Numbered from the stretch's first letter, positions 2,581 through 15,927 are shown. The stretch: DNA of 20,809 nucleotides from Nitrososphaerota archaeon (GCA_013378385.1 JACAFS010000014.1:1-20809), one strand, 5' to 3'. The notes: generated by a model not told the origin, from the letters alone. Program-made: numbers and translations.

Positions 2581-3663
2581 GTGGATATCCAAATATTTGA
2601 ATACCTTAATAATCAGCTAAAAGACGAACGTAAATTATTTTTATTAATTTTTGGTTTTAACTTACTTTTCTTCATATCTGGGTTAGCTTTAGGTTATGAC
2701 GTACATCATTTTGCAGATAAAGCAGATACTGATGGAACCTCTTATTATAATATTGCACTTGATCCTTTTTCATCATCTCCAGAAGAAAGTGGTTTTCGTC
2801 ATGCTACATTTCTCTACCCTCTAATTACATATCTTATTGCACAGGGAAATCCATTTGCTACTGCTTTGACTATGGAGATGATTAATATCACTGCATTCTC
2901 TTTTAGCGTTGTCATGTTCTCTAGAGTTGTTTCTTTAGATAATGCTCGTTCTTCAGTATTGTTCTATGCATTTAATCCAATTCTTCTTATCTCCACTCAT
3001 GGCGGAATGAACGAACCTTTGTTTTTTACATTTATGTTCGGCGCATTGTATTATTTTCGAACTGATAACTTCAAAATGTCTGCAATATTTTTAGCGTTTG
3101 CTTCGTTAGCACGTCCAGATTTTGTTATTTTCTCGTTTCCTTTCTTTTTACTCGCAAAAGATCGAAAGTTTCTTCCATATTTCTTAATTCCACTTATTAC
3201 TATCTCTTTACATGGTGTACATCTTATCTATCGATTTGGTCTGGACCATTTCTTAAGATTTACATCAGGAGTCGATTCAGGTTTTCCACATAGTATGATT
3301 GGAATTCCTTTCCAAACATTCTTTCAAAATCGTTTCTTCGGAGGAGTTAACACTCCTGCGATTACAGGTCTAAATTATTACATCAATGAGTTCCTAACTT
3401 GGTCAATTTTCTTTGCCTTAATTCTATCTATTTATTTTATCTATAAGAAAAAACACATTGATTATTTTAGTTTGTCATTAATTGTGTTCGGATCTGTTTT
3501 ACAACCAGCATATTCATTCTTTTCTGGATTTTTCCGTTTTGCATCAATGGTTCCTTATCTGTATAAAATTCCTGGATTAACTCTAAACAACAAAATGCTT
3601 TCTTTATTTGGATTCCTATATCTTATCTTTGGCATTTCTCTTTTATTCGCTTGGTTCTTTTAG
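2581..3663 (+). CDS. Polytopic integral membrane protein; candidate GT-C-type glycosyltransferase or Wzy/EpsG-like polymerase
   Basis: 360 aa with about 9-10 hydrophobic segments rich in Phe, Leu and Ile. An acidic loop follows directly after TM1 (DVHHFADKADTDGTSYYNIALDPF), as in the first extracytoplasmic loop of GT-C enzymes. The first internal Met lies well past TM1, so a GTG start is required. The gene is co-oriented with the surface-protein gene and sits directly upstream of it. Confidence 0.4.
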   Translation: MDIQIFEYLNNQLKDERKLFLLIFGFNLLFFISGLALGYDVHHFADKADTDGTSYYNIALDPFSSSPEESGFRHATFLYPLITYLIAQGNPFATALTMEMINITAFSFSVVMFSRVVSLDNARSSVLFYAFNPILLISTHGGMNEPLFFTFMFGALYYFRTDNFKMSAIFLAFASLARPDFVIFSFPFFLLAKDRKFLPYFLIPLITISLHGVHLIYRFGLDHFLRFTSGVDSGFPHSMIGIPFQTFFQNRFFGGVNTPAITGLNYYINEFLTWSIFFALILSIYFIYKKKHIDYFSLSLIVFGSVLQPAYSFFSGFFRFASMVPYLYKIPGLTLNNKMLSLFGFLYLIFGISLLFAWFF

Positions 3664-8051: not shown

Positions 8052-8103
8052 GAGAGGACAACATAAGTTGACCTCCCCCCTCTTATTTTTCCAGTCTGGA
8101 AAA

Positions 8104-9207
8104 ATGAACGTAGGACTAGCAGTAGTACTGTCAGCGTTATTGCTCGTTGCAGCAACTCCATTTGCTCTAGCACTTACAATTGCTGGTGACAAGGATGAAT
8201 ACAATCCTAGTGATCAGTTAACTGTCAGTGGTACAGCAGGACCAAATGCGGATATTACATTCAAGGTTTCAAACCCTAATGGTGCACAGGTTGCAGTAGG
8301 TCAAACTACTGCTGACTCAAATGGTGATTACTCAGTAACATTATTGAGATTCCCAAGTGCAGCAACAACTACATTCTCATTCGGAAGTTACACTGTAACT
8401 GCAACAGCAGACGAAGGAACAGCAGAATTAACTGTAACACTTACAGAAGCATCTGCAACTCCAAGTCAACCGGCAGCAAGTTCAGAGAGCGGAGGATTCG
8501 CAGTAGCTGTTACATCAGATGGAACATATAATTCTGGTGATACAGTCTCAATCTTCGTGCTAACAACTGACAACGGCGTCTTAGTCGATGCAACAGTATC
8601 TGTTGCTCGTGTACAGACTCCTAGCGGTTCAGAAAATGTACTAAGTACATGTTCTAAAGTTAGTACTGGATTACAAAAATGCTCATATAATGTAGCTGGT
8701 GGAGTAGGCACCTATGGTGTTCTAGTCCAAGCAAACTCAGATTTGGGTTCAGCAGCAGCAGTTGGAACATTCCAAGTTTCAGCAGGTGTCCAAATTGACA
8801 TCCCTGAAGCAGAAAGCAATGCTCCAATACTCAACGCAATCGCTAGCGTAGCACGCGATGTCGACGGTCTTTCCGACGATATCGATGGCGTTAACGATAA
8901 TGTTGGTGCTATTGATGTTGATGTACCACAAGGTGTGAGTTTAGCTCAAATCAGTAGTGCATTAGATGCAGCAGTTGCCGACGTGAAGTCAGCAGTCTCA
9001 GGCAGTCAATCAGCCATTGAAGAGGAAGTCGAAGAAACTGAAGACGATCTCGAAAATGCTATTGGCAGTATTGTTGAGAATGCAGACGCAGCAGCCGCAG
9101 GCTCTGCACAGGCAGCATCTACAGCTCTAATTGCAGCAGTCCTTGCAGCAATTGCAGTAATACTACAAGTAGTCGTAATCGTTAGAGGAAACGTCCTCAA
9201 AAACTAG
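8104..9207 (+). CDS. Type-I membrane-anchored surface protein: signal peptide, two beta-rich domains, acidic helical stalk, C-terminal TM helix; candidate S-layer anchor/stalk
   Basis: ATG 8104 gives MNVGLAVVLSALLLVAATPFALA, a classical signal peptide. The track's longer version starts at TTG 8068, which has GGAGAGG 10 nt upstream, so the start is ambiguous. Two Thr/Ser/Gly-rich modules follow (…TVSGTAGPNADITFKV…, …FAVAVTSDGTYNSGDTVSIFV…). Next comes an Asp/Ala/Val/Glu-rich low-complexity segment (DVDGLSDDIDGVNDNVGAIDVDV…EEEVEETEDDLENAIGSIVENADAAAAG). The TM helix is ALIAAVLAAIAVILQVVVIV, with a short basic tail RGNVLKN. I found no N-X-S/T sequons. Confidence 0.6.
   Translation: MNVGLAVVLSALLLVAATPFALALTIAGDKDEYNPSDQLTVSGTAGPNADITFKVSNPNGAQVAVGQTTADSNGDYSVTLLRFPSAATTTFSFGSYTVTATADEGTAELTVTLTEASATPSQPAASSESGGFAVAVTSDGTYNSGDTVSIFVLTTDNGVLVDATVSVARVQTPSGSENVLSTCSKVSTGLQKCSYNVAGGVGTYGVLVQANSDLGSAAAVGTFQVSAGVQIDIPEAESNAPILNAIASVARDVDGLSDDIDGVNDNVGAIDVDVPQGVSLAQISSALDAAVADVKSAVSGSQSAIEEEVEETEDDLENAIGSIVENADAAAAGSAQAASTALIAAVLAAIAVILQVVVIVRGNVLKN
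9124..9183 (+). other. C-terminal transmembrane helix of the 8104..9207 product
   Basis: Twenty consecutive hydrophobic residues, ALIAAVLAAIAVILQVVVIV, are followed by R-G-N-V-L-K-N-stop. This is positive-inside and implies N-out/C-in topology. Confidence 0.7.
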
Positions 9208-9919: not shown

Positions 9920-11131
9920 TTACTCCTTCAAAATAACCCTTAATTCTGGCATTGGTATTATGTAATTTAATTTCTGATATTTATCTTCAACTTTTTTTAT
10001 TATCTCATCAGAATAATTCCAAGCAAAAATCATCAAATAATCTGGTATTTCTTTTTCTAATATGTCTGGCGAAGTTATTGGAATATGACTTCCAGGCGTA
10101 AATAATCCTTGTTTTAGTGGCGAATCCTCAATAATTAATTCAATATTACTATTGTCTAAACCAATTGAATTAATCATTGTACTTGATTTTGCAGGTGCGC
10201 CATACCCAAAAATTCTTTTATTATCTTTTTTCAGTTTAACAAATAATTCTCTGATTTGTTCTATGTTGTTCTGCAATTTCTTATTAAAATTCTCTAGTGT
10301 CTGCAAATTGTCTATTCCATTTTCTTTTTCTTCCCTGATTAGATTATTGACACTTTGCTGTGGACTCTTTCCTTCAGATATGTAAGCACGTATTGAACCT
10401 CCATGTGTGGGAATCTTTTCAACATTATATACTGTCATGTTATGTTTGTCGAATAAATTAATCATTGAATGTATCGTATAATATAATACATGTTCATGGT
10501 ATATGTTGTCGAACGTCATATCTCTTATCATATCTGCAAAATACTGCACCTCAACAATATACGTTCCATTTTCTGATAACATTCTCTTGACATTTTCAAT
10601 AATGTCATGATATTCATCTAAATGAGCAAAAACATTTGATGCCACAACTATGTCTGCTTTTCCATTATCTGATATTATCTTGTTAACAGTATCTTTATCA
10701 AAATAAGAACAGATTGTTGCAAGTCCGTTATTATTTGCTTGTTCTGCTAAATTTCCTGCTGGTTCTACACCTATCGCTTTACATCCCAATTCTAATAGTG
10801 GCTTTAGTAAAACTCCGTCATTGGATCCTATATCTACTACTATTTTGGGATTGAATTCAGATTTTATCTTATCAGCTAACTCTGTGAAATGATTTCTTAG
10901 TCCTCCTGATATGGATGAAGCATAGGCATAATCCAGGAATAATTTGTCTCTTGGAATATAGCTCTCATCAGTCAACTGAACAAGTAAACAATTCCTGCAG
11001 CAAGTTACATCTAATGGATACAAAACCTCTTTGTCAAAATCACTTTCTTTAAGAAAAGCATTTGCTGGAGGCTGCCTGTTTAATGAAATAAACTCTAAAA
11101 ATTCTTCTTTATTGCATGACCTACATTTCAA
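9920..11131 (-). CDS. NDP-sugar C-methyltransferase family protein (Zn-ribbon N-domain, class I MTase, C-terminal C-methyltransferase domain; TylCIII-like architecture)
   Basis: 403 aa. It has an N-terminal CRSC…(about 38 residues)…CCRNC zinc-ribbon, then VVDIGSNDGVLLKPL (motif I) and DIVVASNVFAHL, then a C-terminal domain of about 150 aa. Size and layout match NDP-hexose C-methyltransferases. The start must be TTG 11131..11129 because the CxxC begins at codon 3. It overlaps the SDR stop (TTGA). Confidence 0.65.
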   Translation of the reverse strand: MKCRSCNKEEFLEFISLNRQPPANAFLKESDFDKEVLYPLDVTCCRNCLLVQLTDESYIPRDKLFLDYAYASSISGGLRNHFTELADKIKSEFNPKIVVDIGSNDGVLLKPLLELGCKAIGVEPAGNLAEQANNNGLATICSYFDKDTVNKIISDNGKADIVVASNVFAHLDEYHDIIENVKRMLSENGTYIVEVQYFADMIRDMTFDNIYHEHVLYYTIHSMINLFDKHNMTVYNVEKIPTHGGSIRAYISEGKSPQQSVNNLIREEKENGIDNLQTLENFNKKLQNNIEQIRELFVKLKKDNKRIFGYGAPAKSSTMINSIGLDNSNIELIIEDSPLKQGLFTPGSHIPITSPDILEKEIPDYLMIFAWNYSDEIIKKVEDKYQKLNYIIPMPELRVILKE

Positions 11132-13960: not shown

Positions 13961-14218
13961 TTATTCTAACTTCTTTACTTTTGCATGTTCATCTAAAATT
14001 CCTTCTATCGCCAGTATGTCCTTATAATATACTTTTGACTTGAAGTCACAATATCCGCAAATTACTCTTATAAAACTAAATTTTGGATCCATTGTTACTC
14101 TTAACGAACATGGCAGTTCTCCTCCATTATCGTCTTTAAGTGGACATGAGCTGCATTTTACTCCTTTTACTGTTCTAATGATTCTAAATTTACCTTTCTC
14201 GCTCAATAAATAATTCAC
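13961..14218 (-). CDS. Small zinc-ribbon protein (CxxC…CxxC), function unknown
   Basis: 85 aa. CSSC (residues 22-25) and CGYC (54-57), plus one further Cys at 37. It starts at GTG 14218 (or TTG 14206) and overlaps the 3' end of the QueF-like gene by 29 nt (or 17 nt), implying translational coupling. Confidence 0.4.
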   Translation of the reverse strand: MNYLLSEKGKFRIIRTVKGVKCSSCPLKDDNGGELPCSLRVTMDPKFSFIRVICGYCDFKSKVYYKDILAIEGILDEHAKVKKLE

Positions 14219-14570
14219 GTTCGAATGAGTCTATTGCCAATTTTGATGTTATTCCTCCCCTAGGCCTGAACTTCATCTCAATTAACAATCTCTTTGGTTT
14301 GTACACCTGTATCAAATCATCATAAATTACATTAATTACTCTTTCATACGAAGCAATTTGATTTCTATATTGTTGTAGATATAACTTTAAAGATTTTAAC
14401 TCAATTACAGATTTTTCTGGAATCATTGTTATAGTTATTGTTGCATAATCTGGTTGATTCTTTGCTCCATAAAATGTAAATTCTGGCGCATCTATCTCAA
14501 TTTCATAAGGCTCTAACGCTGGGTTTGTTATCTTTTTTAATACGCGTTTATTGGTTTTCAATACAGTCAT
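14190..14570 (-). CDS. QueF-like T-fold protein lacking any cysteine (unimodular QueF / QueF-L family relative)
   Basis: 126 aa. PEFTFYGAKNQPDYATITITMIPEKSVIELKSLKLYLQQYRNQIASYERVINVIYDDL…KFRPRGGI aligns by eye with B. subtilis QueF ([23 protein letters not shown]…VESKSLKLYLFSFRNH…FHE…FTPRGGI). This includes the QueF motif E-x-K-S-L-K-L-Y. The position of the catalytic Cys is occupied by Gly/Ala, and the whole ORF contains no Cys. Confidence 0.55.
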   Translation of the reverse strand: MTVLKTNKRVLKKITNPALEPYEIEIDAPEFTFYGAKNQPDYATITITMIPEKSVIELKSLKLYLQQYRNQIASYERVINVIYDDLIQVYKPKRLLIEMKFRPRGGITSKLAIDSFERELFIERER

Positions 14571-14607: not shown

Positions 14608-15927
14608 TTATCCCAAGCCTATTGCATGGTATTCTAATTTGTTGAATTGTTTCTTCGAAAAGATTCTACGACCGTCAATTATAAGTGGCCTTTTCATCAA
14701 TCGAATAAAATCTTTAGGTTTGAGCATTTTGAATTCTTTCCATTCAGTCACAATAATACAGCAATCTGAATTGCGTATACAAGACTCTGAATCTTTCGCG
14801 TAGGTGATAGAACTTCCAAATATTCTCTTCGTATTATTATTTGCTATAGGGTCGTAGACTCTGACTTTAGCCTTCTTGTCTAACAATCTCTTGATAATTT
14901 TAATTGACGTAGCGTCACGTATGTCATCAGTTTCAGGTTTAAACGCAAGTCCTAGAATCGATATCCTTTTTCCTTCTAATTGGCCTAATTCTTTATTCAA
15001 AATATTAAACACACTCATAAATTGCGTATCGTTAATCGCTAATACTGACTGTAAAATTTCTGAATTAACGCCTAACTCCTTACTAAAAGCAATTAATGCT
15101 TTAACGTCTTTCGGAAAACATGATCCACCAAAACCCAAGCCTGCATTAAGAAATGACTCAGAAATTCTTTTATCCATGCCAATTGCATTTTTAATCTCAT
15201 TCACATCTCCATCTGGTATTCGTTCGGCTATTCTTGATATATAGTTCATAAAACTGATTTTCGTTGCCAATAATGAATTGTTTGCGTATTTAATTAGTTC
15301 AGCATTGCTTGGCGTTGTATAAACTATTGGAAGATTCTTCCTATAGATTTTTTTGAATAATTTATAAATAATTTTTTTATCTTTCTCTGAATTTACTCCA
15401 ACTACAATCTTGTCTGGTCTTAGTGTATCATTTATTGCACTACCCTCTTGCAAAAATTCTGGATTGACTATTACTCCAAAGTGTATTGAATTCTTTTTTC
15501 TTGAATGTTTTTCTAAATTGTCTATTATCTTTAATGCCGTTCCAGGAACAACGGTACTTTTTATAACAATTACAAAATATTCTTCTATATCCTTTATTGC
15601 AATTGCTATATCTTTTGACGCTTGTTCTATATATTTCAAATCTATCGAACCATTTTTCCGACTTGGTGTACCTACTGTAAGAAATATTATCTTTGCTTTT
15701 GTCACATCTGCCACTTTTCTGCTTAACGATAATCTATTCTTTTTGATGGCTTTTTCTAGTAATTCATTCATATATTTCTCATGAATTGGAGAATCTGCAT
15801 TCTTTATCCTGTTTATTTTCTTACTATCGATATCTACACCTAACACATTTATTCCTCTATCTGCAAAGCAAACGGCTGTAGAAAGTCCTACATAACCTAA
15901 ACCCACAAAAGCCACGTCGTATTCCAT
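14608..15927 (-). CDS. ugd: UDP-glucose 6-dehydrogenase (UDP-glucose/GDP-mannose dehydrogenase family)
   Basis: 439 aa. It has the N-terminal Rossmann motif VAFVGLGYVGLSTAVCFA, the catalytic-Cys motif GFGGSCFPKD and a C-terminal UDP-binding domain (ILGLAFKPETDDIRD). Confidence 0.8.
   Translation of the reverse strand: MEYDVAFVGLGYVGLSTAVCFADRGINVLGVDIDSKKINRIKNADSPIHEKYMNELLEKAIKKNRLSLSRKVADVTKAKIIFLTVGTPSRKNGSIDLKYIEQASKDIAIAIKDIEEYFVIVIKSTVVPGTALKIIDNLEKHSRKKNSIHFGVIVNPEFLQEGSAINDTLRPDKIVVGVNSEKDKKIIYKLFKKIYRKNLPIVYTTPSNAELIKYANNSLLATKISFMNYISRIAERIPDGDVNEIKNAIGMDKRISESFLNAGLGFGGSCFPKDVKALIAFSKELGVNSEILQSVLAINDTQFMSVFNILNKELGQLEGKRISILGLAFKPETDDIRDATSIKIIKRLLDKKAKVRVYDPIANNNTKRIFGSSITYAKDSESCIRNSDCCIIVTEWKEFKMLKPKDFIRLMKRPLIIDGRRIFSKKQFNKLEYHAIGLG

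Follow-up and report, generated by a model that had tools for sequence, protein, structure and literature searches.

What does a protein of the QueF family do once it has lost the cysteine that defines QueF, and why should a small cysteine-rich protein be encoded directly behind it? The question is raised by a stretch of 20,809 nucleotides from a Nitrososphaerota archaeon (GCA_013378385.1 JACAFS010000014.1:1-20809; the whole stretch is called the window here), in which an open reading frame (ORF) of 126 codons with QueF-like sequence and no cysteine is followed on the same strand by an overlapping ORF of 85 codons with two CxxC knuckles. The ORF pair, its coordinates, the complete lack of cysteine in the first protein, the CSSC and CGYC knuckles of the second, the frame overlap and the gap to the upstream gene ugd are all as a first-pass annotation of this DNA had described them (Table 1). 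In this study, we show that the loss of the cysteine is a trait of a large family found in archaea, bacteria and marine phages. Moreover, we propose that the best explanation of the locus as a whole, to which we assign a probability of about 0.4, is a cysteine-free NADPH-dependent reductase of the pterin/folate type joined by a lineage-specific accessory subunit.

The cysteine-free QueF-like protein and its family

The 126-residue protein matches the Pfam QueF family (PF14489) with 85 bits and the NCBIfam preQ1 synthase equivalog (TIGR03139) with 107.7 bits, above the cut-off of 86.9 bits, so that annotation pipelines would name it QueF. Its AlphaFold2 (AF2) model is confident (pLDDT 92.5), and the top match of the model in the PDB is Bacillus subtilis QueF (4f8b; TM 0.84, E 3e-11, Foldseek), followed after the unimodular QueFs by bimodular QueF and GTP cyclohydrolase I, with QueF-L at 12-13% identity. 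The protein thus has the unimodular T-fold of QueF, with confidence and without a cysteine.

The published definition of QueF asks for Cys55, Asp62 and Glu97 together with the QueF motif, and sequences without any one of these have been discarded as non-QueF (PMC5372742, section 3.4); the NADPH-binding motif reads E(S/L)K(S/A)hK(L/Y)(Y/F/W) and includes Glu78 (PMC10516641, PMC5372742). In a phmmer alignment with B. subtilis QueF (4f8b/4fgc), Asp62 corresponds to D41, Glu78 to E57 and the substrate-anchoring Glu97 to E76; D41 and E76 are invariant in the family, and the NADPH motif is present as ELKSLKLY. The position of Cys55 is occupied by glycine, here Gly35, in this protein as across the family; one residue of the loop is deleted, and no cysteine occurs anywhere in the protein. 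In addition, His96 is replaced by Tyr75, Cys99 by Val78 and the stacking Phe95 by Ser, and the changes specific to the family are S53 to F, C55 to G, F95 to S and D98 to R, giving the signature SYER. Replacing Cys55 by Ala or Ser abolishes the activity of B. subtilis QueF (PMC13740343). Likewise, QueF-L requires a conserved thioimide-forming cysteine, Cys21 in Pyrobaculum calidifontis (PMC5485725), and has lost the NADPH-binding site (PMC5699537), which is the reverse of what is seen here. With glycine in place of the thioimide cysteine and a remodelled pocket, the protein as aligned fails the published definition both of preQ0 reductase and of the archaeosine synthase QueF-L. Judged by its residues it cannot use thioimide chemistry, and on this the alignment with QueF confirms the first-pass annotation; the histidine-to-tyrosine change in the FHE motif, which had also been singled out, is not special, as many Cys-bearing QueFs read FYE as well.

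In a list of 120 database relatives, E-F/L-T-F-x-G-x3-QPD and S-Y-E-R are shared by every sequence with more than about 50% identity, and Cys-bearing QueFs appear only at the bottom. The window's protein carries the loop of the family, E-[FILV]-T-F-x-G-x3-[QK]-P-D, one residue shorter than in QueF and with glycine at the cysteine position, in the form EFTFYGAKNQPD, together with SYER. Because the same glycine is found in about 110 related protein clusters, 17 independent metagenome contigs and 68 viral contigs, the loss of the cysteine is neither chance nor a sequencing error, but a family trait. In an alignment of 52 Cys-less sequences, 21 positions are invariant, among them the catalytic Asp and the two Glu residues, the greater part of the NADPH motif, and F33, S74, Y75 and R77, which are specific to the family; the Gly35 position is conserved in at least 90%. 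A maximum-likelihood tree, obtained by a quick search only and from few columns, sets the Cys-less sequences apart from the Cys-bearing QueFs on a long branch (SH-aLRT 99), with archaeal sequences at the base of the Cys-less clade and bacterial ones scattered among viral ones. A literature search found no description of a Cys-less QueF, nor of the group discarded by the earlier census (PMC5372742). Taken on these alignments, the 126-residue protein is very probably a member of a large family that is sister to unimodular QueF and lacks its cysteine, and is neither QueF nor QueF-L.

The distribution of the family is wide. A Nitrotoga genome and a Planctomycetaceae genome each hold a canonical Cys-bearing QueF as well as a Cys-less copy, and the same combination occurs in one Marinimicrobia genome; profile scores across 201 Marinimicrobia genomes are bimodal, with nine genomes at 205-222 bits and about 33 at 75-99 bits. 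In our sample of Nitrososphaerales, the gene is present in 6/7 other genomes of the window's genus and in 1/1 of one sister genus, and no other Nitrososphaerales genome searched has a QueF-family gene above the cut-off at a comparable score. The IMG/VR collection contains 232 relatives, and all 68 that were analysed have glycine at the catalytic position, three of them with a cysteine one residue past it. A small phage subclade (L151, L158, L168) reads FEGC-R-x-QPD, its cysteine being sporadic and off the catalytic position. GenBank and cultured phages hold only canonical QueFs, at no more than 47% identity, and none of the phages with the Cys-less form is in the GenBank phage collection.

Table 1. 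Features of the window (coordinates from its first nucleotide) and of two gene types beside phage copies (L-numbers, viral loci)
Feature	Position	Strand	Basis or conservation
Cys-less QueF-family T-fold protein, 126 aa, 0 Cys	14190..14570	(-)	PF14489 and TIGR03139 matches, AF2 model
Gly35 codon (GGA) where QueF has catalytic Cys55	14466..14468	(-)	phmmer alignment to 4f8b/4fgc
Q39-P40-D41, the QueF QPD, with the equivalent of catalytic Asp62	14448..14456	(-)	P40, D41 invariant in alignment
E57-LKSLKL-Y64, QueF NADPH-binding motif, kept	14379..14402	(-)	alignments
S74-Y75-E76-R77 signature in place of QueF F-H/Y-E-x	14340..14351	(-)	invariant in 52 Cys-less sequences
85-aa Cys4 zinc-ribbon-like ORF, lineage-restricted	13961..14218	(-)	conserved in 7 genomes and 17 metagenome loci
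First putative metal knuckle, C22-S-S-C25	14144..14155	(-)	at least 90% in alignment, sole exception the divergent row P0128; all 17 metagenome and 7 genome loci
Second putative metal knuckle, C54-G-Y-C57	14048..14059	(-)	invariant
Overlap of both reading frames, 29 nt from GTG at 14218 or 17 nt from TTG at 14206	14190..14218	(-)	
ugd (UDP-glucose 6-dehydrogenase), upstream, 37-nt gap to the QueF-like ORF	14608..15927	(-)	Pfam three-domain match
Heptose-type module (HAD phosphatase, SIS isomerase, GHMP kinase) and NDP-sugar C-methyltransferase (PF08421/PF08484)	510-2489 and 9920-11131	(-)	
ORFs of 1399, 360 and 379 aa	3852-8051, 2581-3663 and 8068-9207	(+)	no Pfam match
ORFs of 426 and 362 aa	18011-20360	(+)	no Pfam match
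DUF2452 gene	~8370-8870 in each of L125, L126, L127, L130, L174, L177-L179, L184, L187, L192; upstream in L197		Pfam match
Ferredoxin, Fer4_13, 77 aa	L151:808-1041; same position in L168, L170, L171, L172		

The 85-residue zinc-ribbon-like protein

The 85-residue ORF evolves with a dN/dS of 0.18-0.24, its synonymous sites near saturation and its protein diverged by about 60%; it is a real gene under purifying selection, and is found only in two genera of Nitrosopumilaceae. C22/C25 and C54/C57 supply the two CxxC knuckles of a Cys4 zinc ribbon, and these four conserved cysteines form a classical CxxC...CxxC site for a putative metal. The predicted strands (residues 12-20, 37-44, 49-54 and 60-64) flank both knuckles as in a zinc ribbon, albeit in a low-confidence model. 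No relatives outside the lineage were found among 5.8 billion clustered proteins, nor in a full scan of 1.84 billion representatives with a hidden Markov model, which recovered the ORF's own clusters and one apparent relative besides. The latter, P0130 (828 aa), proved to be a false positive, in which about 14 tandem units of about 57 aa add up a short resemblance to DPxFSxIRV. The ORF has no family in Pfam, NCBIfam, PHROG or PADLOC, no match in the PDB by sequence and only chance-level scores of 0.83 in the ESM Atlas. Structure searches likewise gave nothing significant, the Foldseek match to the zinc domain of the aspartate transcarbamoylase (ATCase) regulatory chain having an E of 0.4, and VIA-align, run on the same low-confidence model, a Z of 4.6 at most (3.7 for Elf1 and for ATCase).

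The lack of detectable homologs elsewhere and of any fold match would suit an ORF that is merely a neighbour, such as a small nucleic-acid-binding protein independent of the T-fold protein, and small zinc-ribbon ORFs are common in archaea. We consider such independence unlikely, since the zinc ribbon is never found apart from the QueF-like gene. In 17/17 metagenome loci found by the zinc-ribbon profile, as in the seven genomes, the QueF-like gene stands immediately upstream, in the metagenome loci with a frame overlap of 29-50 nt, and in the sister genus (g4, locus L008) a gap of 12 nt takes the place of the overlap. One or the other arrangement has thus been kept across the whole of the protein divergence. 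Moreover, the presence of the zinc ribbon coincides with the loss of a C-terminal tail: the DSDW...RGG...W tail common to phage and bacterial homologs is missing in the archaeal T-fold proteins, which end in DSFERELFIERER or DSQSRKK. In B. subtilis QueF, the C-terminal tails tie both pentamers together (PMC5372742). The 85-residue protein may therefore replace or cap that surface in archaea. It is probably a physical accessory subunit of the T-fold protein.

The first-pass annotation had described the small ORF as translationally coupled to its neighbour, and the close linkage of the two genes, like the conservation of the ORF, is borne out. It had also raised the idea that the Cys-rich partner supplies the missing nucleophile, which is not supported. 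The four conserved cysteines make up the putative metal site, the fifth (C37) is absent in 6/17 metagenome loci and in sister genus g4, and the great majority of the family, in phages and bacteria, has no such partner.

Gene neighbourhoods and a candidate reaction

The T4-type capsid protein Gp23 was found in 5/5 large viral carriers tested, and the viral carriers are uncultured marine T4-like phages. A giant-virus origin, at which the eukaryote-type DUF2452 and the GVMAG contigs had hinted, was rejected: the capsid of nucleocytoplasmic large DNA viruses was found in 0/5, though it went undetected in the controls too, as against 5/5 for Gp23. Among the 68 phage loci analysed, MetK is directly adjacent to the QueF-like gene in 10, AhcY is the first or second neighbour in 11, MetE lies directly downstream in two, and a PNP_UDP_1 gene (MtnN-like, that is, resembling methylthioadenosine/S-adenosylhomocysteine nucleosidase) lies directly downstream in three. 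No homolog of QueC, QueD or TGT was found in these loci. Small genes also recur beside the phage copies. A DUF2452 gene adjoins in 12 loci, downstream in 11 and upstream in L197, and a single-cluster ferredoxin stands immediately downstream in five; the ferredoxin and the archaeal Cys4 protein together hint at a small metal protein as a recurrent partner. The DUF2452 proteins, which belong to the Pfam family of human C1orf50, are 133-166 aa long, with two truncated forms of 87-88 aa, and a relationship to the archaeal zinc ribbon was ruled out (hhalign probability 0.1%).

In Marinimicrobia (nine carriers and 192 non-carriers), the context is one of folate and methionine genes. In 5/9 carriers the QueF-like gene comes after a divergent stand-alone Pterin_bind (PF00809) protein and before prfA-prmC; of the other four, one each overlaps a Pterin_bind gene, overlaps MetE, is preceded by MsrB or lies at a contig end, Pterin_bind being adjacent or overlapping in six loci. 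The full order in L251-L254 and L258 (for example L253:6143-9438) is DUF1385, Pterin_bind (285 aa, 42 bits), QueF-like, prfA, prmC, and in these genomes there is a stand-alone homocysteine methyltransferase of about 295 aa and MetF was not detected. Neither que genes nor sugar genes occur at the Marinimicrobia loci. A homocysteine S-methyltransferase module is present in 9/9 carriers, as full-length MetH in two and as a stand-alone protein in seven. MetF (PF02219) was detected in 2/9 carriers versus 152/192 non-carriers (Fisher p = 6e-4, or p = 0.03 with related genomes collapsed to three events), a statistic that overstates independence, as the carriers are related metagenome-assembled genomes whose completeness is not established.

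The 126-residue protein has retained the fold and the NADPH motif of QueF, as well as the Glu and Asp by which a 2-amino-4-oxo-pyrimidine ring is held. In QueF, once the thioimide has formed, hydride passes from NADPH to the exocyclic imine carbon at C7, peri to the 6-oxo group. We envisage that the Cys-less protein would use NADPH to reduce a bicyclic substrate resembling guanine, with no covalent intermediate on the way; the likeliest substrate would be a one-carbon carrier of the pterin/folate type. The 2-amino-4-oxo-pyrimidine ring of a tetrahydropterin would be held by the same Glu and backbone contacts; by chemical reasoning, if the pyrimidine rings superpose, N5 would come to lie at the peri position, and the N5=CH2+ iminium of ring-opened 5,10-methylene-tetrahydrofolate would be placed where the imine carbon of QueF lies. 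In the best candidate reaction, a 5,10-methylene-tetrahydropterin with its ring opened would receive hydride at the N5-iminium, and the product would be the 5-methyl form on which methionine synthases draw. NADPH and a general acid (Asp41) would be needed for this, but a cysteine would not. This proposal fits the residues kept and lost, the neighbourhoods with MetE, Pterin_bind, MetK and AhcY, and the missing MetF in the Marinimicrobia carriers. In the archaeal pair, the 85-residue protein would be an accessory subunit acquired in two genera of Nitrosopumilaceae, with a structural Cys4 metal site, and would supply no catalytic cysteine. That the family as such reduces pterins or folates is a tentative assignment, somewhat short of an even chance. 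The more specific version, in which a flavin-free, NADPH-dependent T-fold methylene-tetrahydrofolate (or tetrahydropterin) reductase has been spread by phages as a booster of the S-adenosylmethionine (SAM) cycle and works with the newly evolved Cys4 protein as a two-subunit enzyme in the streamlined marine Nitrosopumilaceae, is doubtful at present.

Several observations weigh against a pterin/folate reductase with an accessory subunit, besides the relatedness of the Marinimicrobia carriers. A T-fold will accept a purine as readily as a pterin. The phage loci are islands of auxiliary metabolic genes that also hold sugar-nucleotide genes (Gmd in 13, GT4 in 13, a cytidylyltransferase in 12 and a Ugd-family gene in five), which makes adjacency weaker evidence, and many of them are near-copies of each other. 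The model of the 85-residue protein is poor (pLDDT 66.7) and without a significant structural match. The neighbours of the archaeal copy are ugd and glycan genes, with no methionine or folate gene near, and sister genera manage without the QueF-like gene. Within Nitrosopumilaceae, MetF was found in 0/14 genomes, dihydrofolate reductase (DHFR) in 1/14 and Pterin_bind in 0/9, with or without the QueF-like gene. As these families are not found regardless of the presence of the gene, the archaeal phyletic pattern neither supports nor contradicts a folate role. All Nitrosopumilaceae searched have two adjacent homologs of core MetE (Meth_synt_2) of about 330-355 aa (G000:C1:2174-4026 in the present genome, in which no MetF match was found), and MetF, Pterin_bind, DHFR and core MetE do not reveal where members of this family obtain the methyl group for methionine.

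The window itself is a glycan island, with heptose-pathway genes, a short-chain dehydrogenase/reductase, a cupin, epimerases, GT2 genes, GalU-Ugd-Uxs, the NDP-sugar C-methyltransferase and a second methyltransferase. The heptose-type module and the NDP-sugar C-methyltransferase suggest a methylated heptose or a branched sugar in an envelope glycan. The order ugd, QueF-like gene, zinc ribbon is kept in related genomes and in most metagenome loci, and the genes downstream vary. Five long ORFs of the window have no Pfam match at E 1e-4.

Alternative explanations and significance

It is possible in principle that the protein still handles 7-deazaguanines, either by non-covalent binding of preQ0, preQ1 or another 7-substituted form, or as one of two subunits of an archaeosine or nitrile enzyme, with the partner providing the nucleophile. 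QueF is the closest solved relative, and all base-recognition residues are kept. Moreover, the genome has queD-queC and one arcTGT (C5, a frame of 530 aa) outside the window, and the first-pass annotation had asked whether ArcS, QueF-L or GAT-QueC might exist elsewhere in it; no ArcS, RaSEA, GAT-QueC, Cys-bearing QueF-L or second QueF-family gene was found in this genome, so that the last step of archaeosine formation has no assigned enzyme here. Behind queD and queC lies an ORF of 243 aa with a FolE2-like HMSR motif, recognised by the motif only (G000:C34:2553-4487). The link to archaeosine and QueF-L that had been suggested is not supported, however. Those other Nitrososphaerales genomes that were searched do not have the gene, which makes it unlikely to be the archaeosine synthase of the order; no que genes accompany the viral and bacterial copies, which lie beside methionine and folate genes; the stacking Phe95 has become Ser; the NADPH motif is kept, unlike in QueF-L (PMC5699537); and neither the cysteines of the partner nor its narrow distribution suit a donated nucleophile. 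We regard a 7-deazaguanine function as quite improbable, and, among the options that the first-pass annotation had raised, a T-fold enzyme with a different reaction as the most plausible.

In a second alternative, the T-fold protein would be a pseudoenzyme that catalyses nothing but senses a pterin or purine or keeps it sequestered, with the zinc ribbon as effector or anchor, loosely like GTP cyclohydrolase I and its feedback regulatory protein (GFRP). Both the nucleophile and the protective Cys99 are lost, and small genes recur immediately downstream, namely the archaeal zinc ribbon, DUF2452 and the ferredoxin. The likeness to GFRP lies in a T-fold decamer with a small (about 84 aa) beta-rich partner, and complexes of the cyclohydrolase with GFRP are among the fold matches; however, GFRP has no detectable homology to the zinc-ribbon ORF, and for the archaeal pair an interaction is something we infer. 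A pseudoenzyme is no more probable than a 7-deazaguanine function: about 20 residues, the catalytic Asp and the whole NADPH motif among them, are strictly conserved from archaea to bacteria and phages, which better fits an active enzyme, and phage auxiliary genes are usually enzymes. Least probable is a role in nucleotide-sugar or glycan metabolism, such as a GDP-sugar in the guanine pocket, which would explain the fixed place behind ugd and agrees with the conserved gene order, the glycan island and the frequent Gmd, GT4, cytidylyltransferase and Ugd-family genes of the phage loci, but the Marinimicrobia contexts have no sugar genes, phage islands of this kind mix many functions, and we know of no T-fold enzyme that acts on sugars.

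The Cys-less protein can be set against several known systems. With B. subtilis QueF the protein shares the fold, 33-36% identity, the equivalents of Asp62, Glu78 and Glu97, the NADPH motif and the PRGG motif; it differs in the Cys55, Cys99 and Phe95 positions and the one-residue loop deletion described above, in the new invariant Phe (position 53) and Arg (position 98) of a separate clade, and in gene neighbourhoods of methionine, folate or glycan genes, not queuosine genes. With the crenarchaeal QueF-L (P. calidifontis, PDB 5jyx/5k0p) it has in common an archaeal host, here with arcTGT and without ArcS, and the T-fold, whereas the identity is low and the fates of the cysteine and of the NADPH site are opposite (PMC5485725, PMC5699537). 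DpdL, a Cys-to-Leu paralog of QueD in phages, is likewise a phage T-fold paralog that has lost its catalytic cysteine and for which a new reaction has been proposed (PMC10516641), but it belongs to another T-fold family and stays inside 7-deazaguanine gene clusters, which the Cys-less QueF family does not. MetF, or methylene-tetrahydrofolate reductase (MTHFR), is a candidate functional analogue only: both enzymes would use NAD(P)H, the Cys-less genes keep company with MetE, split-MetH modules and MetK/AhcY, and MetF was not detected in 7/9 Marinimicrobia carriers or in this archaeon. MetF is a flavin-dependent TIM barrel; the present protein is a T-fold without a flavin site.

These findings bear on annotation as well as on metabolism. 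The Cys-less proteins carry the names preQ1 synthase or 7-cyano-7-deazaguanine reductase in JGI, and pipelines label them so although the published definition excludes them (PMC5372742); as a consequence, the capacity for queuosine and archaeosine is over-called in marine archaea, bacteria and viromes. A large, strongly conserved family stands beside SAM-cycle genes in abundant ocean phages, and its reaction is a gap in marine one-carbon and methionine metabolism. If the family is indeed a flavin-free reductase of the MTHFR type, it would provide, in several lineages, the step for which MetF is missing, and would constitute a new, non-homologous route to the methyl donor of methionine synthase. 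The archaeal pair, for its part, would illustrate clearly how a small metal-binding partner has newly evolved on an old enzyme fold.

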